DNA from: a virus | Taxonomy: Duplodnaviria; Heunggongvirae; Uroviricota; Caudoviricetes | Length of the DNA: 16,845 nt | Reading direction: 5' to 3' (one strand) | Virus record (IMG/VR): IMGVR_UViG_2585427778_000001 | Shown here: piece by piece, positions 1,574 to 16,845 of the stretch | Position numbering within the stretch: position 1 is the stretch's first letter | How the letters are laid out: every line of letters begins with the position of its first letter | Translations under genes and position numbers: made by a program | Notes under the pieces: model-generated | What the model was told of the DNA's origin: nothing | Seen by the model: only the letters and a program-made list of their open reading frames with translations | Database searches by the model: none

Positions 1574-1630
1574 ATAAAACAAAACTCGCCGTAGCGAGTT
1601 CAGATAAAAGAAAACCCGCACTCGGCGGGT
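1574..1630 (-). terminator. Two tandem intrinsic terminators on the minus strand
   Basis: Hairpin 1 ACTCGC-cgta-GCGAGT (1584-1599) and hairpin 2 ACCCGC-actcg-GCGGGT (1614-1630); each is followed on the minus strand by a T-rich run (plus-strand A-runs at 1574-1583 and 1604-1613). Confidence 0.6.
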
Positions 1631-1910
1631 TCGCATTCGTTCAAATTGCGTTTACTTCTTGGCGTTCTGTTCATCCATATCGATATACCATGGGTTGCTT
1701 CCCTTGGGCATGTTTAACGACTGCTCGCGATAGTATCTGATGCGCTCCATGAAATACTCGCGTGAGTGCTCAAGTTGCTCTCATGATACCTGCTCAGTGA
1801 TAACAGGTATGTTAAGGCGCTCTCTGTACTCCATGCCTGATGCTGCAAGGTCAACGTTTACCTTGTTCTGTTTTTCTTTCGATTTCTCGGCGATGTTATG
1901 CCTGACATTG

Positions 1911-2153
1911 TCAACCCGCCTCCTTCTGAACATAACGGTTATAAATCAGTCCCTGAGGGCCATAAGGAAGCGGGATGTGCAACTCCTCTGGTTCAGAAAC
2001 TATCCATTCCCCGGCCATCTCCGCTGGAGAGGTAATGATAAGTTGTTTGCTAATAAAAGGACCACTCCTCTCAACAACAAGCTTACCATCTTCATTAATA
2101 AAAGCTTGGGTGTCAGGTGTGCTTCCACACTTGGTGATGCAGCGTTTGAACAT
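1911..2153 (-). CDS. Hypothetical protein (80 aa from the MFKR start; the ORF extends to 2195)
   Basis: Minus-strand ORF co-oriented with the pL operon; ATG at 2153 is preceded by a G-rich Shine-Dalgarno-like run (GGGGGG). No recognisable family. Confidence 0.5.
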   Translation of the reverse strand: MFKRCITKCGSTPDTQAFINEDGKLVVERSGPFISKQLIITSPAEMAGEWIVSEPEELHIPLPYGPQGLIYNRYVQKEAG

Positions 2154-2183
2154 TTTGTGTCCCCCCATTTTATGGACGGGGTA

Positions 2184-2192
2184 ATTATAACA
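2184..2192 (-). promoter_or_regulatory. Candidate extended -10 promoter (TGtTATAAT on the minus strand) for the 80-aa gene
   Basis: Perfect TATAAT with upstream TG in an AT-rich spacer about 30 nt upstream of the ATG at 2153; no good -35. Confidence 0.3.
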
Positions 2193-2279
2193 CATTGAAA
2201 TATAGTAATATTTGACGTAGATTTCTTTTGATCTATAAGCGATTTTTTAATGCTTTTAAGTTATAAATACTTGTTTTCA

Positions 2280-2855
2280 TCACCCATCTTGCTGCGGTGC
2301 TACTATTGAAAAGTACTCACACCCTTTAGCCCAAATAGTTTTGATAGTTGTCCAACTGACTGGAACCTTGATTTCGATTCTTCCGCTGCCGTCACAAGTT
2401 TCGCAATCATCATCACCAAAGCATTCCGGGCAGCTTATAAACGTAGTTTCTGAAAATTCACCGGATAGCACACCCTTAGCGCCGTTCTCAGCGGTTAGTT
2501 TCTTCGGCACTATAACCCAACCATCCGGAGTTACCGGAGAGTTGCCATTTATATCGAAGTTTGGCTCTGCGTCCTGAACCAGGAGGATGTAACCATTCTT
2601 GGCAGTATCAAGTTCTAACGCCTCGGTGACGGTACCGAAATAGCGATTACCTAAATCCGCATCACAAGTGCTTACATCAATGGAAACCTCCATGCCTTCG
2701 ATTAATTCTGGCAAGTTGTAAGTTTGGCTTACAGGTTCTGCTCCCAGTGATGCCAGTGCAATTCGTGCCAGTTCCATTTGTTCGCCACGAGTAAGCCCGT
2801 TTTCAAGCGGATTTTTAATGAACAATTCAATACGTTCTTTGGTAATAGTGGTCAT
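2280..2855 (-). CDS. Hypothetical protein, 191 aa, with C-terminal zinc-ribbon-like motif CPEC-x6-CETC
   Basis: Intact ORF with ATG start and AAGGA Shine-Dalgarno-like sequence; lies 10 bp downstream of the Tgt-like gene on the same strand. Cys pairs at CPECFGDDDCETCDGSG. Confidence 0.6.
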   Translation of the reverse strand: MTTITKERIELFIKNPLENGLTRGEQMELARIALASLGAEPVSQTYNLPELIEGMEVSIDVSTCDADLGNRYFGTVTEALELDTAKNGYILLVQDAEPNFDINGNSPVTPDGWVIVPKKLTAENGAKGVLSGEFSETTFISCPECFGDDDCETCDGSGRIEIKVPVSWTTIKTIWAKGCEYFSIVAPQQDG

Positions 2856-2865
2856 TTGTTAGTCC

Positions 2866-3621
2866 TTAAACTGCTAGTTGCAATTGCATTTCAAAGCGGT
2901 CGCGTTGTTCACAATACGCAAGAGAACCAGGGCTATTGTGTGCCTCAATCCGTTCTACCATTAATGCTGCGCGTGTCTCTTTACTTGCAGGTGCATAAGC
3001 CCCAGACCAGGCTTTATCAATACCGATGTTTCGAGCGACGTTCGTACTATCTGCGCTGGCTAAGGGTAATTTTGTGAATATCAGCGGATTTAACATGCGC
3101 AATCCATGTAGTTTCGTAACCGGCTGACCATGCCCATCAACAATGTGACGAATCAGGTCTTTCATTCTGGCTACCGCAAGAGTTGGGCGCTTTACGTCAT
3201 AGTCGCCACAACTACCGATAGCCACTCGCGGAAACTCATTGCACAAATGAATAAATCGCTCGTCACTTTCATTCATGTGCCACACTGGAACGCCAGCTAG
3301 TTTTCCGTGAGGCCACTCATTCAGAAGCGCATCATTTTCCTCCTCTCCGCCATCAATAACATCCGGGATAATGGCAAAATCGAATCCTGGGTGATTCTTC
3401 CAGCGAGCAACAAACTCGTAGTAATCGCTCCAGTCGATTTTGTTTTTGCCAGCTGCTTTCCAGGCGGTGAATGCACCGTTGTCCAGCGCGAACGACTGAC
3501 AGTATTCAGCCGCGAGATTGATCTGGCCTGAATGCGCAAAACTGATAAACGCATGTCGCCCTTTCCATGCTCTCATTGCGCACGTATCAGGAGTAATAGG
3601 CCCACCGTGGTAGTGAATCAT
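2866..3621 (-). CDS. Putative Tgt/DpdA-family transglycosylase-like protein (about 251 aa from MIHYHGG; the ORF extends to 3663)
   Basis: Strong AAGGAG Shine-Dalgarno sequence before the ATG at 3621. Ordered motif resemblance to the Tgt catalytic core, from memory of E. coli Tgt: LDNGAF vs TDSGGFQ; DFAIIPDV vs DIVMIFDEC; VAIGSCG vs YAVGGLAVG; HGLRMLNP vs YLMGVGKP; ADSTNVARNIG vs FDCVMPTRNARNG. No C-terminal CxCxxC...H zinc subdomain. Confidence 0.5.
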   Translation of the reverse strand: MIHYHGGPITPDTCAMRAWKGRHAFISFAHSGQINLAAEYCQSFALDNGAFTAWKAAGKNKIDWSDYYEFVARWKNHPGFDFAIIPDVIDGGEEENDALLNEWPHGKLAGVPVWHMNESDERFIHLCNEFPRVAIGSCGDYDVKRPTLAVARMKDLIRHIVDGHGQPVTKLHGLRMLNPLIFTKLPLASADSTNVARNIGIDKAWSGAYAPASKETRAALMVERIEAHNSPGSLAYCEQRDRFEMQLQLAV

Positions 3622-3622
3622 C

Positions 3623-4030
3623 TCACTCTCCTTTGATGCGAATGCCAGTAGCGCGGATTGCATCGATGACTTCAGAAACTTTGTATGCCATTACCGTTTG
3701 GTAATCATCGTGAAAATCTGTTCGATGAAGCATGCTGCTACGTTCCGGGAGCAGTATTTCCCGCGCTTCCAGTTCTGCAATGCGCTTTTTTGCTGCTTCC
3801 AGTTCATCCAGTAATTCCAGCACGGTAGCCGGATTAGCCTTGGCAACAAAATCCCGGACTGGCTTACAATCAATCTCCGCAATGGGTTGATACGATGTGT
3901 AGCCATGCTGTCTTGTATAACTACCGTGACGAATAACGAAAAAATCACCATTTATTTTTTTAGCCTGCCACTTATCTTCACCGGCTTTCTCTGCCGCTTC
4001 ACGCAGTGCCTGAGAGTTAATTTCGCTCAC
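3623..4030 (-). CDS. Ead/Ea22-like family protein (135 aa)
   Basis: N-terminal QALREAAEKA and coiled-coil LELLDELEAAKKRIAELEA segments typical of prophage Ea22-like proteins as recalled; GTG start overlaps the upstream stop (GTGA), and its stop lies 1 nt from the downstream ATG. Confidence 0.55.
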   Translation of the reverse strand: MSEINSQALREAAEKAGEDKWQAKKINGDFFVIRHGSYTRQHGYTSYQPIAEIDCKPVRDFVAKANPATVLELLDELEAAKKRIAELEAREILLPERSSMLHRTDFHDDYQTVMAYKVSEVIDAIRATGIRIKGE

Positions 4031-7720: not shown

Positions 7721-7921
7721 TCAGGCAGCTTTGTTGTTCTGTTTACCAAGTTCTCTGGCAATCATTGCCGTCGTTCGTATTGCCCATTTATCGACATATT
7801 TCCCATCTTCCATTACAGGAAACATTTCTTCAGGCTTAACCATGTATTCCGATTGCAGCTTGCATCCATTGCATCGCTTGAATTGTCCACACCATTGATT
7901 TTTATCAATAGTCGTAGTCAT
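7721..7921 (-). CDS. ral: Ral, restriction alleviation protein, 66 aa
   Basis: Translation MTTTIDKNQWCGQFKRCNGCKLQSEYMVKPEEMFPVMEDGKYVDKWAIRTTAMIARELGKQNNKAA matches lambda Ral. Confidence 0.95.
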   Translation of the reverse strand: MTTTIDKNQWCGQFKRCNGCKLQSEYMVKPEEMFPVMEDGKYVDKWAIRTTAMIARELGKQNNKAA

Positions 7922-9182: not shown

Positions 9183-9222
9183 TCACCTTCATGGTGGTCA
9201 GTGCGTCCTGCTGATGGCCTAA

Positions 9223-9307
9223 AATATACCTACAGGTAAAACAGTTGTCTATACCTGCAGGTAAATAAAATTGATGTAAGAGTTTACCTGCTTGAATTTT
9301 CAGGTAA
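9223..9307 (-). promoter_or_regulatory. pL/oL region of a non-lambda immunity type
   Basis: Candidate pL TAGACA-17bp-TATATT on the minus strand (plus 9246-9251 and 9223-9228), overlapped by palindromic operator-like sites TATACCTACAGGTAAA (9225-9240), TATACCTGCAGGTAAA (9250-9265) and TTACCTG-N10-CAGGTAA (9284-9307). Confidence 0.6.
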
Positions 9308-9323
9308 TTAATTTTTTGGATTG

Positions 9324-9349
9324 ATATAAAAAAGCCCGCTTTGCGGGCT
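9324..9349 (-). terminator. Intrinsic terminator on the minus strand ending the repressor operon
   Basis: Hairpin AGCCCGC-aaa-GCGGGCT followed by TTTTTATATCAA on the minus strand, immediately downstream of the 104-aa gene. Confidence 0.75.
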
Positions 9350-9360
9350 GAAAGGAGATG

Positions 9361-9675
9361 TCAGAAGCTATTTGGATTGCTTGGCCATTGCGGCAATTTT
9401 GATTCTACTGGGGTGTGTTTGGGTTTGAGTCCGTTTAAGTAGTCAAGACGCTCAATGGCGCATTTATACATAGCAATCTGCTCTGATGACATGTCGTCGT
9501 ATGACATGCCTTTGAACTTTTTAATTATCGATTCTGCCTCATGTATAAGATGCTTCTTCTTCATGAGTTCAGCTGTATGCTTAGAGCTTACAGGAGATAA
9601 CTTTGCCCATATGAAGCAGATGATTACAACAGCGACTACTATGCCGGGTATAAACACTTGCTGCTTTATCCTCAA
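9361..9675 (-). CDS. Small membrane-anchored protein (98-104 aa) co-transcribed downstream of cI
   Basis: The ORF begins at a TTG overlapping the cI stop (TTGA); a likelier start is GTG at 9657 with a GAGGA Shine-Dalgarno sequence. One N-terminal hydrophobic helix (FIPGIVVAVVIICFIWA) then a charged helical region. No family recognised. Confidence 0.6.
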   Translation of the reverse strand: MRIKQQVFIPGIVVAVVIICFIWAKLSPVSSKHTAELMKKKHLIHEAESIIKKFKGMSYDDMSSEQIAMYKCAIERLDYLNGLKPKHTPVESKLPQWPSNPNSF

Positions 9676-10358
9676 ACTTTTGGCAGATCGTCCTGGTCTA
9701 CGTACCTGGTGTGTTTCACAATAGCTGAAACAAAATGCATTTTATCAACTTCTTCAACAGGAAGAGTGATTGGGCGGTGATCACTGTTTATGCTACTAAA
9801 CTGATAATCACCGTCTCTTGTTTTGTTCATGATCTTTATCATGTTGTGACCGTCTTTGGTCCTTACAAAGACTTCATCACCTGGATGTACTGGCGTATTT
9901 GGTTCAATAACAACATATTCTCCTGACTGAATCCTTGGCCACATGCTGTCACCCTTAACCTTCAGACCGTAAGCATCGTTATCGCCGCTGTAGATGCTTA
10001 ACCAACCGGATCTGAATTCAATCATATCCACTGAGCCATCAACTCCCAAAACGGCTTCACCAATTACCGGAACAAAACCCGCACGAACGTTACCCGCAAA
10101 CTCAAGATGGTCTGTAGCTCCAGCTTTACCATCTGCAAGCATGTCCATCCATCCGCGTGGGAGATTAAAAGATTTTTCAATTAGTTCCATCATATCGTCA
10201 GCAATGCGTTTTTTTCCGCTTTTTCCTTCCGGATACAGCATTCTGGAAACGTATGATGGTTCCCTTTCTATTCGACGAGCCAACTCTGAGGCCTTTCCAT
10301 TACAGAATCGGTCTCTTATCTCTATCAGCCTTAGTCGTCTTTGTTCGTATTTATCCAT
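9672..10358 (-). CDS. cI: CI-type prophage repressor (HTH plus LexA-like S24 autopeptidase domain), 228 aa, not lambda cI
   Basis: N-terminal HTH (ASELARRIEREPSYVSRML), a candidate Ala-Gly cleavage site (EFAGNV) and C-terminal GDSMWP...K serine/lysine dyad motifs; divergent from cro across an operator region. Confidence 0.85.
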   Translation of the reverse strand: MDKYEQRRLRLIEIRDRFCNGKASELARRIEREPSYVSRMLYPEGKSGKKRIADDMMELIEKSFNLPRGWMDMLADGKAGATDHLEFAGNVRAGFVPVIGEAVLGVDGSVDMIEFRSGWLSIYSGDNDAYGLKVKGDSMWPRIQSGEYVVIEPNTPVHPGDEVFVRTKDGHNMIKIMNKTRDGDYQFSSINSDHRPITLPVEEVDKMHFVSAIVKHTRYVDQDDLPKV

Positions 10359-10377
10359 GATTTAATTCTATCTTTGA

Positions 10378-10434
10378 TTACCTGCCGGTAAATAACCTAT
10401 GGGTATTGATTTGCTTTTTACCTACAGGTAAACT
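10378..10434. promoter_or_regulatory. oR/pR/pRM region with three operator-like sites
   Basis: TTACCTGCCGGTAAA (10378-10392), TAACCTATGGGTATT (about 10394-10408) and TTACCTACAGGTAA (10418-10431); candidate pR TTGATT (10406-10411) -17bp- TAAACT (10429-10434) upstream of cro. Confidence 0.6.
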
Positions 10435-10466
10435 CATCTTATTCAACAACGGGAAGGAGATAGCAA

Positions 10467-10697
10467 ATGGAAGAACTCCGCTTGTATCTGAACTCCCTTT
10501 CACTGGAAGAGCAGAGAGAATTTGCCACCAAGTGCGGAACTTCTATCGGCTATTTGAGGAAAGCACTTAGCCGTAATCATGAATTGGGCGCAGCACTTTG
10601 TGTTCTGATTGAGAAGTTCAGCAATGGTGAAGTGACTCGCAAAGACCTTCATCCGGTTGATTGGGAAAGCATCTGGCCTGAATTAATGGCCGCTTAA
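10467..10697 (+). CDS. cro: Cro-like HTH regulator, 76 aa
   Basis: First rightward gene after oR, strong GGAAGGAGA Shine-Dalgarno sequence, HTH-like segment ATKCGTSIGYLRKAL. Confidence 0.7.
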   Translation: MEELRLYLNSLSLEEQREFATKCGTSIGYLRKALSRNHELGAALCVLIEKFSNGEVTRKDLHPVDWESIWPELMAA

Positions 10698-10705
10698 GTT
10701 ATTAA

Positions 10706-13039: not shown

Positions 13040-13070
13040 AGGCCTGCTGGTAATCGCAGGCCTTTTTATT
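13040..13070 (+). terminator. tR2-like intrinsic terminator between ren and ninB
   Basis: 8-bp stem AGGCCTGC-tggtaatc-GCAGGCCT followed by TTTTTATTT. Confidence 0.8.
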
Positions 13071-13087
13071 TGGGGGAGAGGGAAGTC

Positions 13088-13528
13088 ATGAAAAAACTAA
13101 CCTTTGAAATTCGATCTCCAGCACATCAGCAAAACGCTATTCACGCAGTACAGCAAATCCTTCCAGACCCAACCAAACCAATCGTAGTAACCATTCAGGA
13201 ACGCAACCGCAGCTTAGACCAAAACAGGAAGCTATGGGCCTGCTTAGGTGACGTCTCTCGTCAGGTTGAATGGCACGGTCGCTGGCTGGATGCAGAAAGC
13301 TGGAAGTGTGTGTTTACCGCAGCATTAAAGCAGCAGGATGTTGTTCCTAACCTTGCCGGGAATGGCTTTGTGGTAATAGGCCAGTCAACCAGCAGGATGC
13401 GTGTAGGCGAATTTGCGGAGCTATTAGAGCTTATACAGGCATTCGGTACAGAGCGTGGCGTTAAGTGGTCAGACGAAGCGAGACTGGCTCTGGAGTGGAA
13501 AGCGAGATGGGGAGATCGGGCTGCATGA
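13088..13528 (+). CDS. ninB: NinB (Orf family recombination mediator), 146 aa
   Basis: Matches lambda NinB starting MKKLTFEIRSPAHQQNAIHAVQQILPDPTKPIVV... Confidence 0.9.
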   Translation: MKKLTFEIRSPAHQQNAIHAVQQILPDPTKPIVVTIQERNRSLDQNRKLWACLGDVSRQVEWHGRWLDAESWKCVFTAALKQQDVVPNLAGNGFVVIGQSTSRMRVGEFAELLELIQAFGTERGVKWSDEARLALEWKARWGDRAA

Positions 13529-14052
13529 CTATCAAATCAAATACGCCAGCACACGACAAGGACTGCTGGCAAACGCCGCTTTGGCTTTTTGATGCACTGG
13601 ATATTGAGTTTGGATTCTGGCTGGATTCGGCAGCGAGCGACAAAAATGCTCTGTGTGCTCACTGGCTAACTGAGGCCGACGACGCGCTCAATTCTGAGTG
13701 GGTAAGCCACGGTGCAATCTGGAATAACCCACCGTACAGCAATATCAGGCCGTGGGTGGAAAAAGCTGCTGAGCAGTGCATACAACAGCGACAGACGGTA
13801 GTTATGCTTGTGCCAGAGGATATGTCAGTCGGATGGTTCAGCAAGGCTCTGGAGAGTGTCGACGAAGTTCGCATTATCACTGATGGACGGATTAATTTTA
13901 TCGAACCATCGACAGGGCTGGAGAAGAAGGGAAACAGCAAAGGCTCCATGCTGCTGATTTGGCGACCGTTCATCAGTCCTCGACGGATGTTTACTACCGT
14001 ATCCAAAGCGGCATTGATGGCGATCGGGCAGGGCGTCAGGAGGGCGGCATGA
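13525..14052 (+). CDS. Phage orphan DNA N6-adenine methyltransferase (Dam-like), about 175 aa, in the position of lambda ninC
   Basis: NPPY catalytic motif (WNNPPYS) and the DKDCWQTP N-terminal motif typical of phage N6-adenine methyltransferases; ATG overlaps the ninB stop (ATGA). Confidence 0.8.
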
Positions 14053-14225
14053 GGCGACAGCGACGAAGTTTCACCGACATCATCTGCGAAAACTGCAAAT
14101 ACCTTCCAACGAAACGCTCCAGAAATAAACGCAAGCCAATCCCAAAAGAATCTGACGTAAAAACCTTCAATTACACAGCTCACCTGTGGGATATCCGGTG
14201 GCTAAGATATCGTGCGAGGAAATGA
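14049..14225 (+). CDS. ninE: NinE, 58 aa
   Basis: [58 protein letters not shown] resembles NinE; start overlaps the methyltransferase stop. Confidence 0.8.
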
Positions 14226-14569
14226 CAATGGATTATTCACAGTTAAGTGATTTTGAAATTAACAGAATGGTAGGAGACATAATTTTTAAAGGCCTTTGGG
14301 CAAGTAAACCGGAAACATCAGGGAATAACACCAACAAATGGTATTACGGAAATGCTGATACAACTTTTGAGCCATTAAATCATTTGCCTGACTACTGCAA
14401 TGATCCGAGCGCTTCATGGCCGATTATTGAGAAATACAGGATTTCTATCTTAGACCAGTTAACTGAATGGTGTGTGGATGCAAAAGGCGTAAGCCCAATA
14501 TTTGATACCAGACCTCTCCGCGCCGCCATGATTGTCTTTCTCCTGATGCAGGAGGCCAATAATGCTTAG
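14222..14569 (+). CDS. Hypothetical nin-region protein, about 115 aa
   Basis: ORF with ATG overlapping the ninE stop (ATGA); compositionally protein-like. Family not recognised with certainty. Confidence 0.5.
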
Positions 14570-14650
14570 CCCATCTCAATCCCTTCAATACCTGAAAGGA
14601 AGCATAGAGCGGGCTTCAATGTGCACAGAGTGGATTCTATCTAGGTTTAG

Positions 14651-14779
14651 CGCATACAGAAGATTGCCGGTAAAGGGCATGCCAAGCAAGTCGATGCTGC
14701 ATATGCAAAAGAATGCGCGCTGGAAGGTATGGCGAGAACACAGGTTATCTGGCTGAAAGAGGGGGTTATTAAGGCGTGA
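14651..14779 (+). pseudogene. Possible 3' remnant of a ybcO-like (DUF1364) gene with no start codon
   Basis: The frame ending in a GTGA overlap with the rusA start translates as ...[42 protein letters not shown] but is closed by stop codons at 14642 and 14648 with no upstream ATG. Resemblance to the YbcO C-terminus is from memory only. Confidence 0.3.
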
Positions 14780-15138
14780 ATACCTACAGCATCACATTAC
14801 CCTGGCCTCCGAGCAATAATCGCTATTACCGCCATAATCGCGGGCGCACGCACGTCAGCGCAGAGGGGCAGGCATACCGCGATAACGTCGCCCGAATCAT
14901 TAAAAACGCAATGCTGGATATCGGCCTGACTATGCCTGTGAAAATCCGCATTGAGTGCCACATGCCGGATCGCCGTCGCCGTGACCTGGATAATCTGCAA
15001 AAAGCCGCTTTTGACGCACTCACTAAAGCAGGTTTCTGGCTGGATGATGCTCAGGTCGTTGATTACCGCGTTGTGAAGATGCCTGTTACCAAAGGTGGGA
15101 GGCTGGAACTGACCATCACCGAAATGGGGAATGAATGA
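14776..15138 (+). CDS. rusA: RusA Holliday junction resolvase, 120 aa (GTG start)
   Basis: Translation [51 protein letters not shown]...[12 protein letters not shown] matches E. coli DLP12 RusA as recalled. Confidence 0.95.
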
Positions 15139-15275
15139 TGTTTGAGTTTAATATGGCAGAACTTCTTCGCCACCGCTGGGGGCGTCTGCGCTTATATCGT
15201 TTCCCCGGTTCTGTTTTGACCGATTACCGAATACTGAAGAATTACGCCAAAACACTGACAGGAGCAGGAGTATGA
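15135..15275 (+). CDS. ylcG: YlcG-like small protein, 46 aa
   Basis: Hand translation [46 protein letters not shown]; ATG overlaps the rusA stop; same gene order as DLP12 (rusA-ylcG-quuD). Confidence 0.6.
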
Positions 15276-16082: not shown

Positions 16083-16137
16083 GGTGATGCTGCCAACTTA
16101 CTGATTTAGTGTATGATGGTGTTTTTGAGGTGCTCCA

Positions 16138-16413
16138 GTGGCTTCTGTTTCTATCAGCTGTCCCTCCTGTTCAGCTACTGACGGGGTGGTGCGTAACGGC
16201 AAAAGCACCGCCGGACATCAGCGCTATCTCTGCTCTCACTGCCGTAAAACATGGCAACTGCAGTTCACTTACACCGCTTCTCAACCCGGTACGCACCAGA
16301 AAATCATTGATATGGCCATGAATGGCGTTGGATGCCGGGCAACTGCCCGCATTATGGGCGTTGGCCTCAACACGATTTTACGTCACTTAAAAAACTCAGG
16401 CCGCAGTCGGTAA
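16138..16413 (+). CDS. insA: IS1 InsA, 91 aa (GTG start)
   Basis: Translation [43 protein letters not shown]... matches IS1 InsA; the A6C frameshift motif TTAAAAAACTC (about 16389-16395) lies near its 3' end. Confidence 0.95.
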
Positions 16414-16835
16414 CCTCGCGCATACAGCCGGGCAGTGACGTCATCGTCTGCGCGGAAATGGACGAACAGTGGGGCTATGTCGGGGCTAAATCGCGCCAGC
16501 GCTGGCTGTTTTACGCGTATGACAGGATACGGAGGACGGTTGTTGCGCACGTATTCGGTGAACGCACGCTGGCCACGCTGGAGCGTCTTCTGGGCCTGCT
16601 GTCGGCCTTTGAGGTCGTGGTATGGATGACAGATGGCTGGCCGCTTTATGAATCACGCCTGAAGGGAGAACTGCACGTTATCAGCAAGCGATATACGCAG
16701 CGCATTGAGCGGCATAACCTGAATCTGAGGCAGCATCTGGCAAGGCTGGGCAGGAAGTCACTGTCGTTCTCAAAATCGGTGGAGCTGCATGACAAAGTCA
16801 TCGGGCATTATCTGAACATAAAACACTATCAATAA
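16332..16835 (+). CDS. insB: IS1 InsB frame (167-aa ORF; expressed as the InsAB' transposase by -1 frameshift)
   Basis: Translation matches IS1 InsB (…[21 protein letters not shown]…[49 protein letters not shown]). Confidence 0.9.
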
Positions 16836-16845
16836 GTTGGAGTCA

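Follow-up and report, generated by a model that had tools for sequence, protein, structure and literature searches.

A stand-alone phage-type N6-adenine DNA methyltransferase of the PF05869 family between ninB and ninE in a lambda-like prophage

The closest described counterpart of the gene considered here is orf32 (NP_050531.1) of the Stx2 phage VT2-Sakai, which likewise has ninB and ninE as its neighbours and is the sole methyltransferase annotated in that phage; a search for a second methyltransferase among four hypothetical ORFs of the VT2-Sakai left arm (orf3, orf4, orf5 and orf8) returned DUF551 or nothing. As orf32 is the only methyltransferase annotated there, we take it to be M.EcoVT2Dam, which PMC6602927, citing Radlinska and Bujnicki 2001, describes as an orphan MTase of E. 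coli prophage VT2-Sa that targets GATC. Phage Phi24B carries the same protein as CDS 17559-18086, named 'dam' (clone CM2), which is 100% identical to VT2-Sakai NP_050531.1 and 99% identical to the HK97 copy, with copies at at least 99% reported in HK97, Min27 and Stx2 phage II; the expression pattern of the Phi24B gene is tied to the lytic cycle after prophage induction (PMC3342100). More distant phage-borne orphans of the same Pfam family, PF05869, are T1 Dam, HP1 Dam and S. aureus PamA. T1 Dam is reported to methylate GATC. HP1 Dam is named among the phage Dam-like genes. PamA makes S. aureus DNA sensitive to DpnI, and mutation of P65/P66 in its NPPY motif abolishes methylation (PMC12435837).

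Other orphan adenine methyltransferases are also found in E. coli lambdoid and Stx prophages, namely M.EcoGI/GII, phiP27 L24, Hia5, M.EcoGV and M.EcoPA8orf6770P. The non-specific enzymes take DNA without a motif as their substrate, and the substrate of M.EcoPA8orf6770P is 16S rRNA. The gene described below should be kept apart from the MT-A70 and M.EcoGII-type prophage methyltransferases, whose substrates differ greatly.

The window, by which we mean the whole stretch of viral DNA that was analysed (16,845 nucleotides; Caudoviricetes; IMG/VR record IMGVR_UViG_2585427778_000001), holds a lambda-like prophage nin region in which one gene encodes a protein identical at 175/175 residues to VT2-Sakai orf32. 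The features of this gene and its surroundings are as follows.

13040-13073, plus strand: terminator-like hairpin at 13040-13063 with a T-run after it, between ren and ninB, found by a scan (8 pairs, 6 of them G-C, then TTTTATTTGG)
13088-13528, plus strand: ninB (orf recombination mediator), the upstream neighbour; Pfam NinB, E = 2.3e-54, collinear with lambda ninB
13510-13514, plus strand: GGGAG, a Shine-Dalgarno-like sequence of putative function, 10 nt 5' of the ATG
13525-13528, plus strand: ATGA overlap of the ninB stop (TGA) and the dam start (ATG); the ninB ORF ends at 13528
13525-14052 (stop included), plus strand: dam-type gene for a 175-aa phage N6-adenine DNA methyltransferase, an ORF with PF05869/TIGR01712 matches
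13561-13578, plus strand: D13-C-W15-Q16-T17-P18, N-terminal phage-type motif; T17 and P18 are invariant and D13, W15 and Q16 at least 90% conserved
13621-13626, plus strand: L33-D34, end of the first beta-strand; invariant in both alignments and at the C-terminal end of AlphaFold strand E31-36
13726-13737, plus strand: N68-P69-P70-Y71, catalytic motif IV, target-adenine pocket; invariant in both alignments
14049-14052, plus strand: ATGA overlap of the dam stop (TGA) and the ninE start (ATG), the latter at the start of the NinE Pfam match
14049-14225, plus strand: ninE, the downstream neighbour; Pfam NinE, E = 1.1e-41

The dam-type ORF is intact, with 175 codons from an ATG at 13525 to a TGA at 14050-14052, exactly the extent given in the original prediction. 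An alternative, longer reading of the same frame begins at GTG 13465; the ATG-start form is the 528-bp gene of public genome annotations. At the downstream end, the NinE Pfam match begins at residue 31 of the ORF at 13959-14225, which is nucleotide 14049. Both the protein, at the level of identity, and its position between ninB and ninE are shared with M.EcoVT2Dam (VT2-Sakai orf32) and Phi24B dam, but the mosaic around the gene differs: here lambda-type O/P replication genes, ninX and rusA accompany it, and Q is a different one. The gene is already known and very common: at a threshold of 95% identity, the 528-bp sequence is found in 1565 of 5426 complete E. coli genomes, over a quarter of them. 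In all 1565, RefSeq labels it 'phage N-6-adenine-methyltransferase', with 'recombination protein NinB' on one side and 'NinE family protein' on the other. The segment from ninB to ninX is matched in 431 phage records, including many Stx1/Stx2 and environmental lambda-like phages. As a discovery the gene carries little weight: the exact protein has already been named and, according to published work, cloned and characterised. The annotation of the window can be given with confidence.

A Pfam profile search gave a full-length match to PF05869 ("Dam"; E = 6.4e-65, 218.4 bits against a gathering cut-off of 28.1) that spans residues 4-169 and profile positions 1-167 of 169; it is the sole Pfam match of the protein at E ≤ 0.01. 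In NCBIfam, the equivalog TIGR01712 ("phage N-6-adenine-methyltransferase") is matched over positions 1-165 of 165 (E = 9.7e-80, 265.9 bits against a cut-off of 97.05), and in PHROG the protein matches phrog_111, 'DNA methyltransferase' (E = 8.6e-88). T1 Dam, HP1 Dam and S. aureus PamA each match PF05869 too, at 29-35% identity to the window protein; relative to it T1 Dam is extended by 46 aa at the N-terminus and has an insertion of 14 aa, and PamA is shorter (141 aa). The NPPY motif, T17-P18 and L33-D34 are invariant across 42 Enterobacterales homologues of 59-86% identity and again in an alignment with T1 Dam, HP1 Dam and PamA, and the same is true in both sets of R122, F125 and G131. D34 probably provides the acidic residue of motif I, the AdoMet-binding motif. 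These results bear out the claim that the gene encodes an N6-adenine methyltransferase with NPPY (residues 68-71) and a phage-type N-terminal motif (residues 13-18), and the alignment check that had been proposed for the catalytic motif found it undisrupted in all of these sequences. At the level of sequence, membership of the stand-alone, small phage-type N6-adenine DNA methyltransferases of the T1/HP1/VT2 family (PF05869/TIGR01712) is confirmed. Some database entries (P0002, P0005, P0011, P0013, P0022 and P0087) fuse the methyltransferase domain to neighbouring phage domains, among them NinE, NinB, RusA and Q; frameshifts or gene-calling errors where stop and start codons overlap, as in ATGA, together with rearranged prophages, probably account for them.

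PF05869 is a family without a solved structure; a PDB sequence search gave no relevant match, the best (E = 0.24 and 0.72) being to unrelated proteins. The AlphaFold model calculated from an alignment of homologues is confident (mean pLDDT 83, pTM 0.83) and is a single compact alternating beta/alpha domain; in both the Pfam match and this model one domain takes up the whole 175 residues, and a separate target-recognition domain is absent. According to Foldseek, the model is most similar among PDB entries to PCIF1/CAPAM, the cap-specific m6Am enzyme of eukaryotic mRNA (TMq 0.57-0.62, E = 2e-4 to 1.5e-3), at 14-16% identity and an r.m.s.d. above 5 Å. The match to E. coli Dam is much weaker (TMq 0.33-0.35 over ∼117 columns), and CamA, METTL4 and others lie far below PCIF1 as well (TMq ∼0.3-0.35). 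The top fold matches (PCIF1, E. coli Dam, CamA and METTL4) are all N6-adenine methyltransferases. The model places the window protein in the amino-methyltransferase superfamily and argues that it is not closely related to Dam enzymes of the classical alpha class.

The description of the gene as Dam-like is thus apt for the reported GATC target but not for the family, which is PF05869 and not PF02086 (MethyltransfD12); the protein has no PF02086 match in Pfam at E ≤ 0.01. With the alpha-class, PF02086 enzymes E. coli Dam and T4 Dam it shares the reported target, orphan status, AdoMet chemistry and a (D/N)PPY pocket; unlike them it has no separate DNA-recognition domain, is ∼100 aa shorter and has NPPY. 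The marks of a classical Dam, namely the MethyltransfD12 profile, DPPY and an inserted DNA-recognition domain, are absent from the window protein.

The order of genes in this nin region is O, P, ren, the tR2-like terminator, ninB, dam, ninE, ninX, a 64-aa ORF, rusA, a 46-aa ORF and Q. In a BLAST comparison with lambda, homology runs up to the ninB stop at 13528 and begins again at 14056, within ninE, from which we deduce that dam substitutes for lambda ninC and ninD precisely at the gene boundaries; the original prediction had the position between ninB and ninE right but put the gene in place of ninC alone. Among the ORFs of the window no restriction endonuclease family was recognised in Pfam, NCBIfam or PHROG, and the only nucleases are the recombination enzymes exo and rusA. 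The gene is therefore an orphan methyltransferase, as had been proposed from the lack of a cognate nuclease nearby: where a type II restriction-modification system would have its adjacent cognate endonuclease, the flanks are ninB and ninE, with ninX, rusA and Q as further neighbours. The rest of the nin region (14186-15275, plus strand) is of the P22/HK97 type and not that of lambda, with NinX (DUF2591) and with RusA replacing NinG; its 46-aa ORF matches phrog_2705, and its 64-aa ORF (14562-14756, plus strand) has no PHROG match.

Taken together, we consider it very probable that the gene encodes an active, AdoMet-dependent, stand-alone N6-adenine methyltransferase of PF05869/TIGR01712, acting most likely on the adenine of GATC and switched on by induction. 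By analogy with the family, the single Rossmann-type domain of ∼170 residues would bind AdoMet through the N-terminal helix that carries DxWQTP and through the Asp34 that follows strand 1, and the target adenine would be flipped into the pocket formed by N68-P-P-Y71. As there is no separate target-recognition domain, it must be loops within the catalytic domain that read GATC; the candidate recognition segment is residues 121-140, which is conserved and less confidently modelled. GATC is the most likely target of the window protein by way of its identity to orf32 and of the target reported for M.EcoVT2Dam.

The hairpin between ren and ninB lies at what we take to be the position of lambda tR2, and transcription of ninB-dam-ninE from pR would therefore need readthrough. 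On the lambda pattern, dam would belong to the pR operon as one of its delayed-early genes, beyond the tR2-like terminator and under N antitermination, with its translation probably coupled to that of ninB and ninE through the two ATGA overlaps. It would stay off as long as the prophage is repressed and be expressed upon induction or infection, which the Phi24B data support. The enzyme may serve to keep fast-replicating phage DNA fully methylated at GATC independently of limited host Dam; progeny would thereby be protected from nucleases that cut unmethylated GATC, so that the dam status of the host would no longer matter, and nicking of hemimethylated phage DNA by MutH might also be prevented. 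By plain count, GATC is found 46 times in the window, where base composition predicts ∼65 and a trinucleotide Markov estimate ∼83. CTAG occurs four times in the same stretch.

Because E. coli, the usual host, already carries Dam, the enzyme probably gives the phage a small to modest gain against restriction in Dam-positive strains. It was proposed that the element carries up to three separate ways of evading host restriction, which are, with their coordinates,

2866-3663, minus strand: 'Tgt-like' ORF of 265 aa; phrog_887, 'queuine tRNA-ribosyltransferase', E = 5e-104
7721-7921, minus strand: ral, present and intact

and the methyltransferase. Of this proposal ral stands; a GATC methylase adds little in Dam-positive hosts, and the Tgt-like ORF has a PHROG match only, with no match in Pfam, NCBIfam or PDB sequences. 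This ORF could be a divergent DpdA-like DNA 7-deazaguanine transglycosylase, as a candidate only; it lies within ∼1618-3988, a segment with almost no lambda homology by BLAST. Adjoining it is a 191-aa ORF (2280-2855, minus strand) that matches phrog_60 only, with the function label "unknown", and two plus-strand ORFs (1224-1577 and 1740-2198) have no family match in Pfam, NCBIfam or PHROG.

We think it unlikely, if worth keeping in mind, that the main job of the enzyme is other than anti-restriction, with full methylation of GATC blinding MutH-directed mismatch repair, licensing recombination between diverged lambdoids or tuning GATC-dependent induction switches. The location within the nin recombination cluster (ninB/orf on the 5' side and rusA on the 3' side) and the switch-on at induction can be cited for such a role, and such recombination between diverged genomes is what gives the lambdoids their mosaicism.

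A relaxed or non-specific adenine methyltransferase, giving broad protection against many restriction systems in the manner of M.EcoGII, Hia5 and the phiOS31/phiP27-type enzymes, is quite improbable, even though prophage methyltransferases are often promiscuous (PMC4659465; PMC7556043). The lack of a separate target-recognition domain in the window enzyme speaks for it, and extra sites are compatible with restriction-protection assays on overexpressed enzymes. A caveat of this kind, which applies to DpnI/MboI assays on such enzymes too, has been reported for another prophage 'Dam' (PMC10810198). The known non-specific enzymes, however, come from other families, and the window protein matches PF05869 only. 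The non-specific beta-class enzymes have ∼350 residues and an N6_N4 domain and are usually encoded between Q and the lysis/stx genes, a description that the window protein does not fit; phiP27 L24, for example, is a 352-aa protein encoded between Q and stx, whereas the window protein has 175 aa and lies in the nin region. Those PF05869 members with a reported specificity (T1, HP1, VT2-Sakai and PamA) are moreover all described as acting on GATC. A link to Hia5, M.EcoGII and phiOS31_p25/phiP27 L24 was considered and rejected, as phiP27 L24 is a 352-aa protein encoded elsewhere in its genome; the Hia5 paper makes no mention of VT-2, phage T1, HP1, PF05869 or 933W.

It is very improbable that the physiological substrate of the GATC enzyme proposed here is in fact RNA (rRNA or mRNA). 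The precedent is M.EcoPA8orf6770P, an 'adenine DNA methyltransferase' of a Stx prophage, and so of the same kind of phage, that proved to be a 16S rRNA methyltransferase (PMC10810198), and PCIF1, an RNA cap m6Am methyltransferase, outranks the DNA enzymes among the fold matches. M.EcoPA8orf6770P is, however, an MT-A70 protein, from another family; it has a DPPW motif and needs a partner subunit (PMC10810198), and the window protein has NPPY, not DPPW, and no MT-A70 match in Pfam at E ≤ 0.01. The MT-A70 enzymes of these prophages (M.EcoGV and M.EcoPA8orf6770P) are encoded in the left arm and the window protein in the nin region; a link between the gene and the Stx-prophage 16S rRNA methyltransferase of PMC10810198 was rejected on the grounds of family (MT-A70/DPPW) and genome position. 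The PCIF1 match is distant, at the identity and r.m.s.d. given above. Methylation of DNA by PamA in vivo was shown by DpnI sensitivity (PMC12435837), and methylation of DNA is also reported for M.EcoVT2Dam (PMC6602927).

Beyond Q, the window ends in an insertion sequence.

16083-16845, plus strand: IS1 element that runs off the end of the window; left inverted repeat GGTGATGCTGCCAACTTACTGAT from ∼16083

The element begins ∼345 bp downstream of Q and includes InsA (16138-16413) and an IS1 transposase domain (16332-16835); homology to other E. coli prophages ends at 16083. The prophage may be interrupted by IS1 between Q and the lysis genes, and as the insertion is just downstream of Q it may be defective. 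That the methyltransferase gene is an inactive relic without function in a decaying prophage, as this IS1 at the end of the window might suggest, is nevertheless extremely improbable, since the ORF is intact and identical to copies in the functional phages VT2-Sakai and Phi24B and every conserved motif is present.

The immunity region (9217-10705) is not that of lambda, with which it has no BLAST homology, and rexA/rexB are apparently absent from it. The position of cI is occupied by an ORF of 228 aa (9672-10358, minus strand) and that of cro by one of 76 aa (10467-10697, plus strand).
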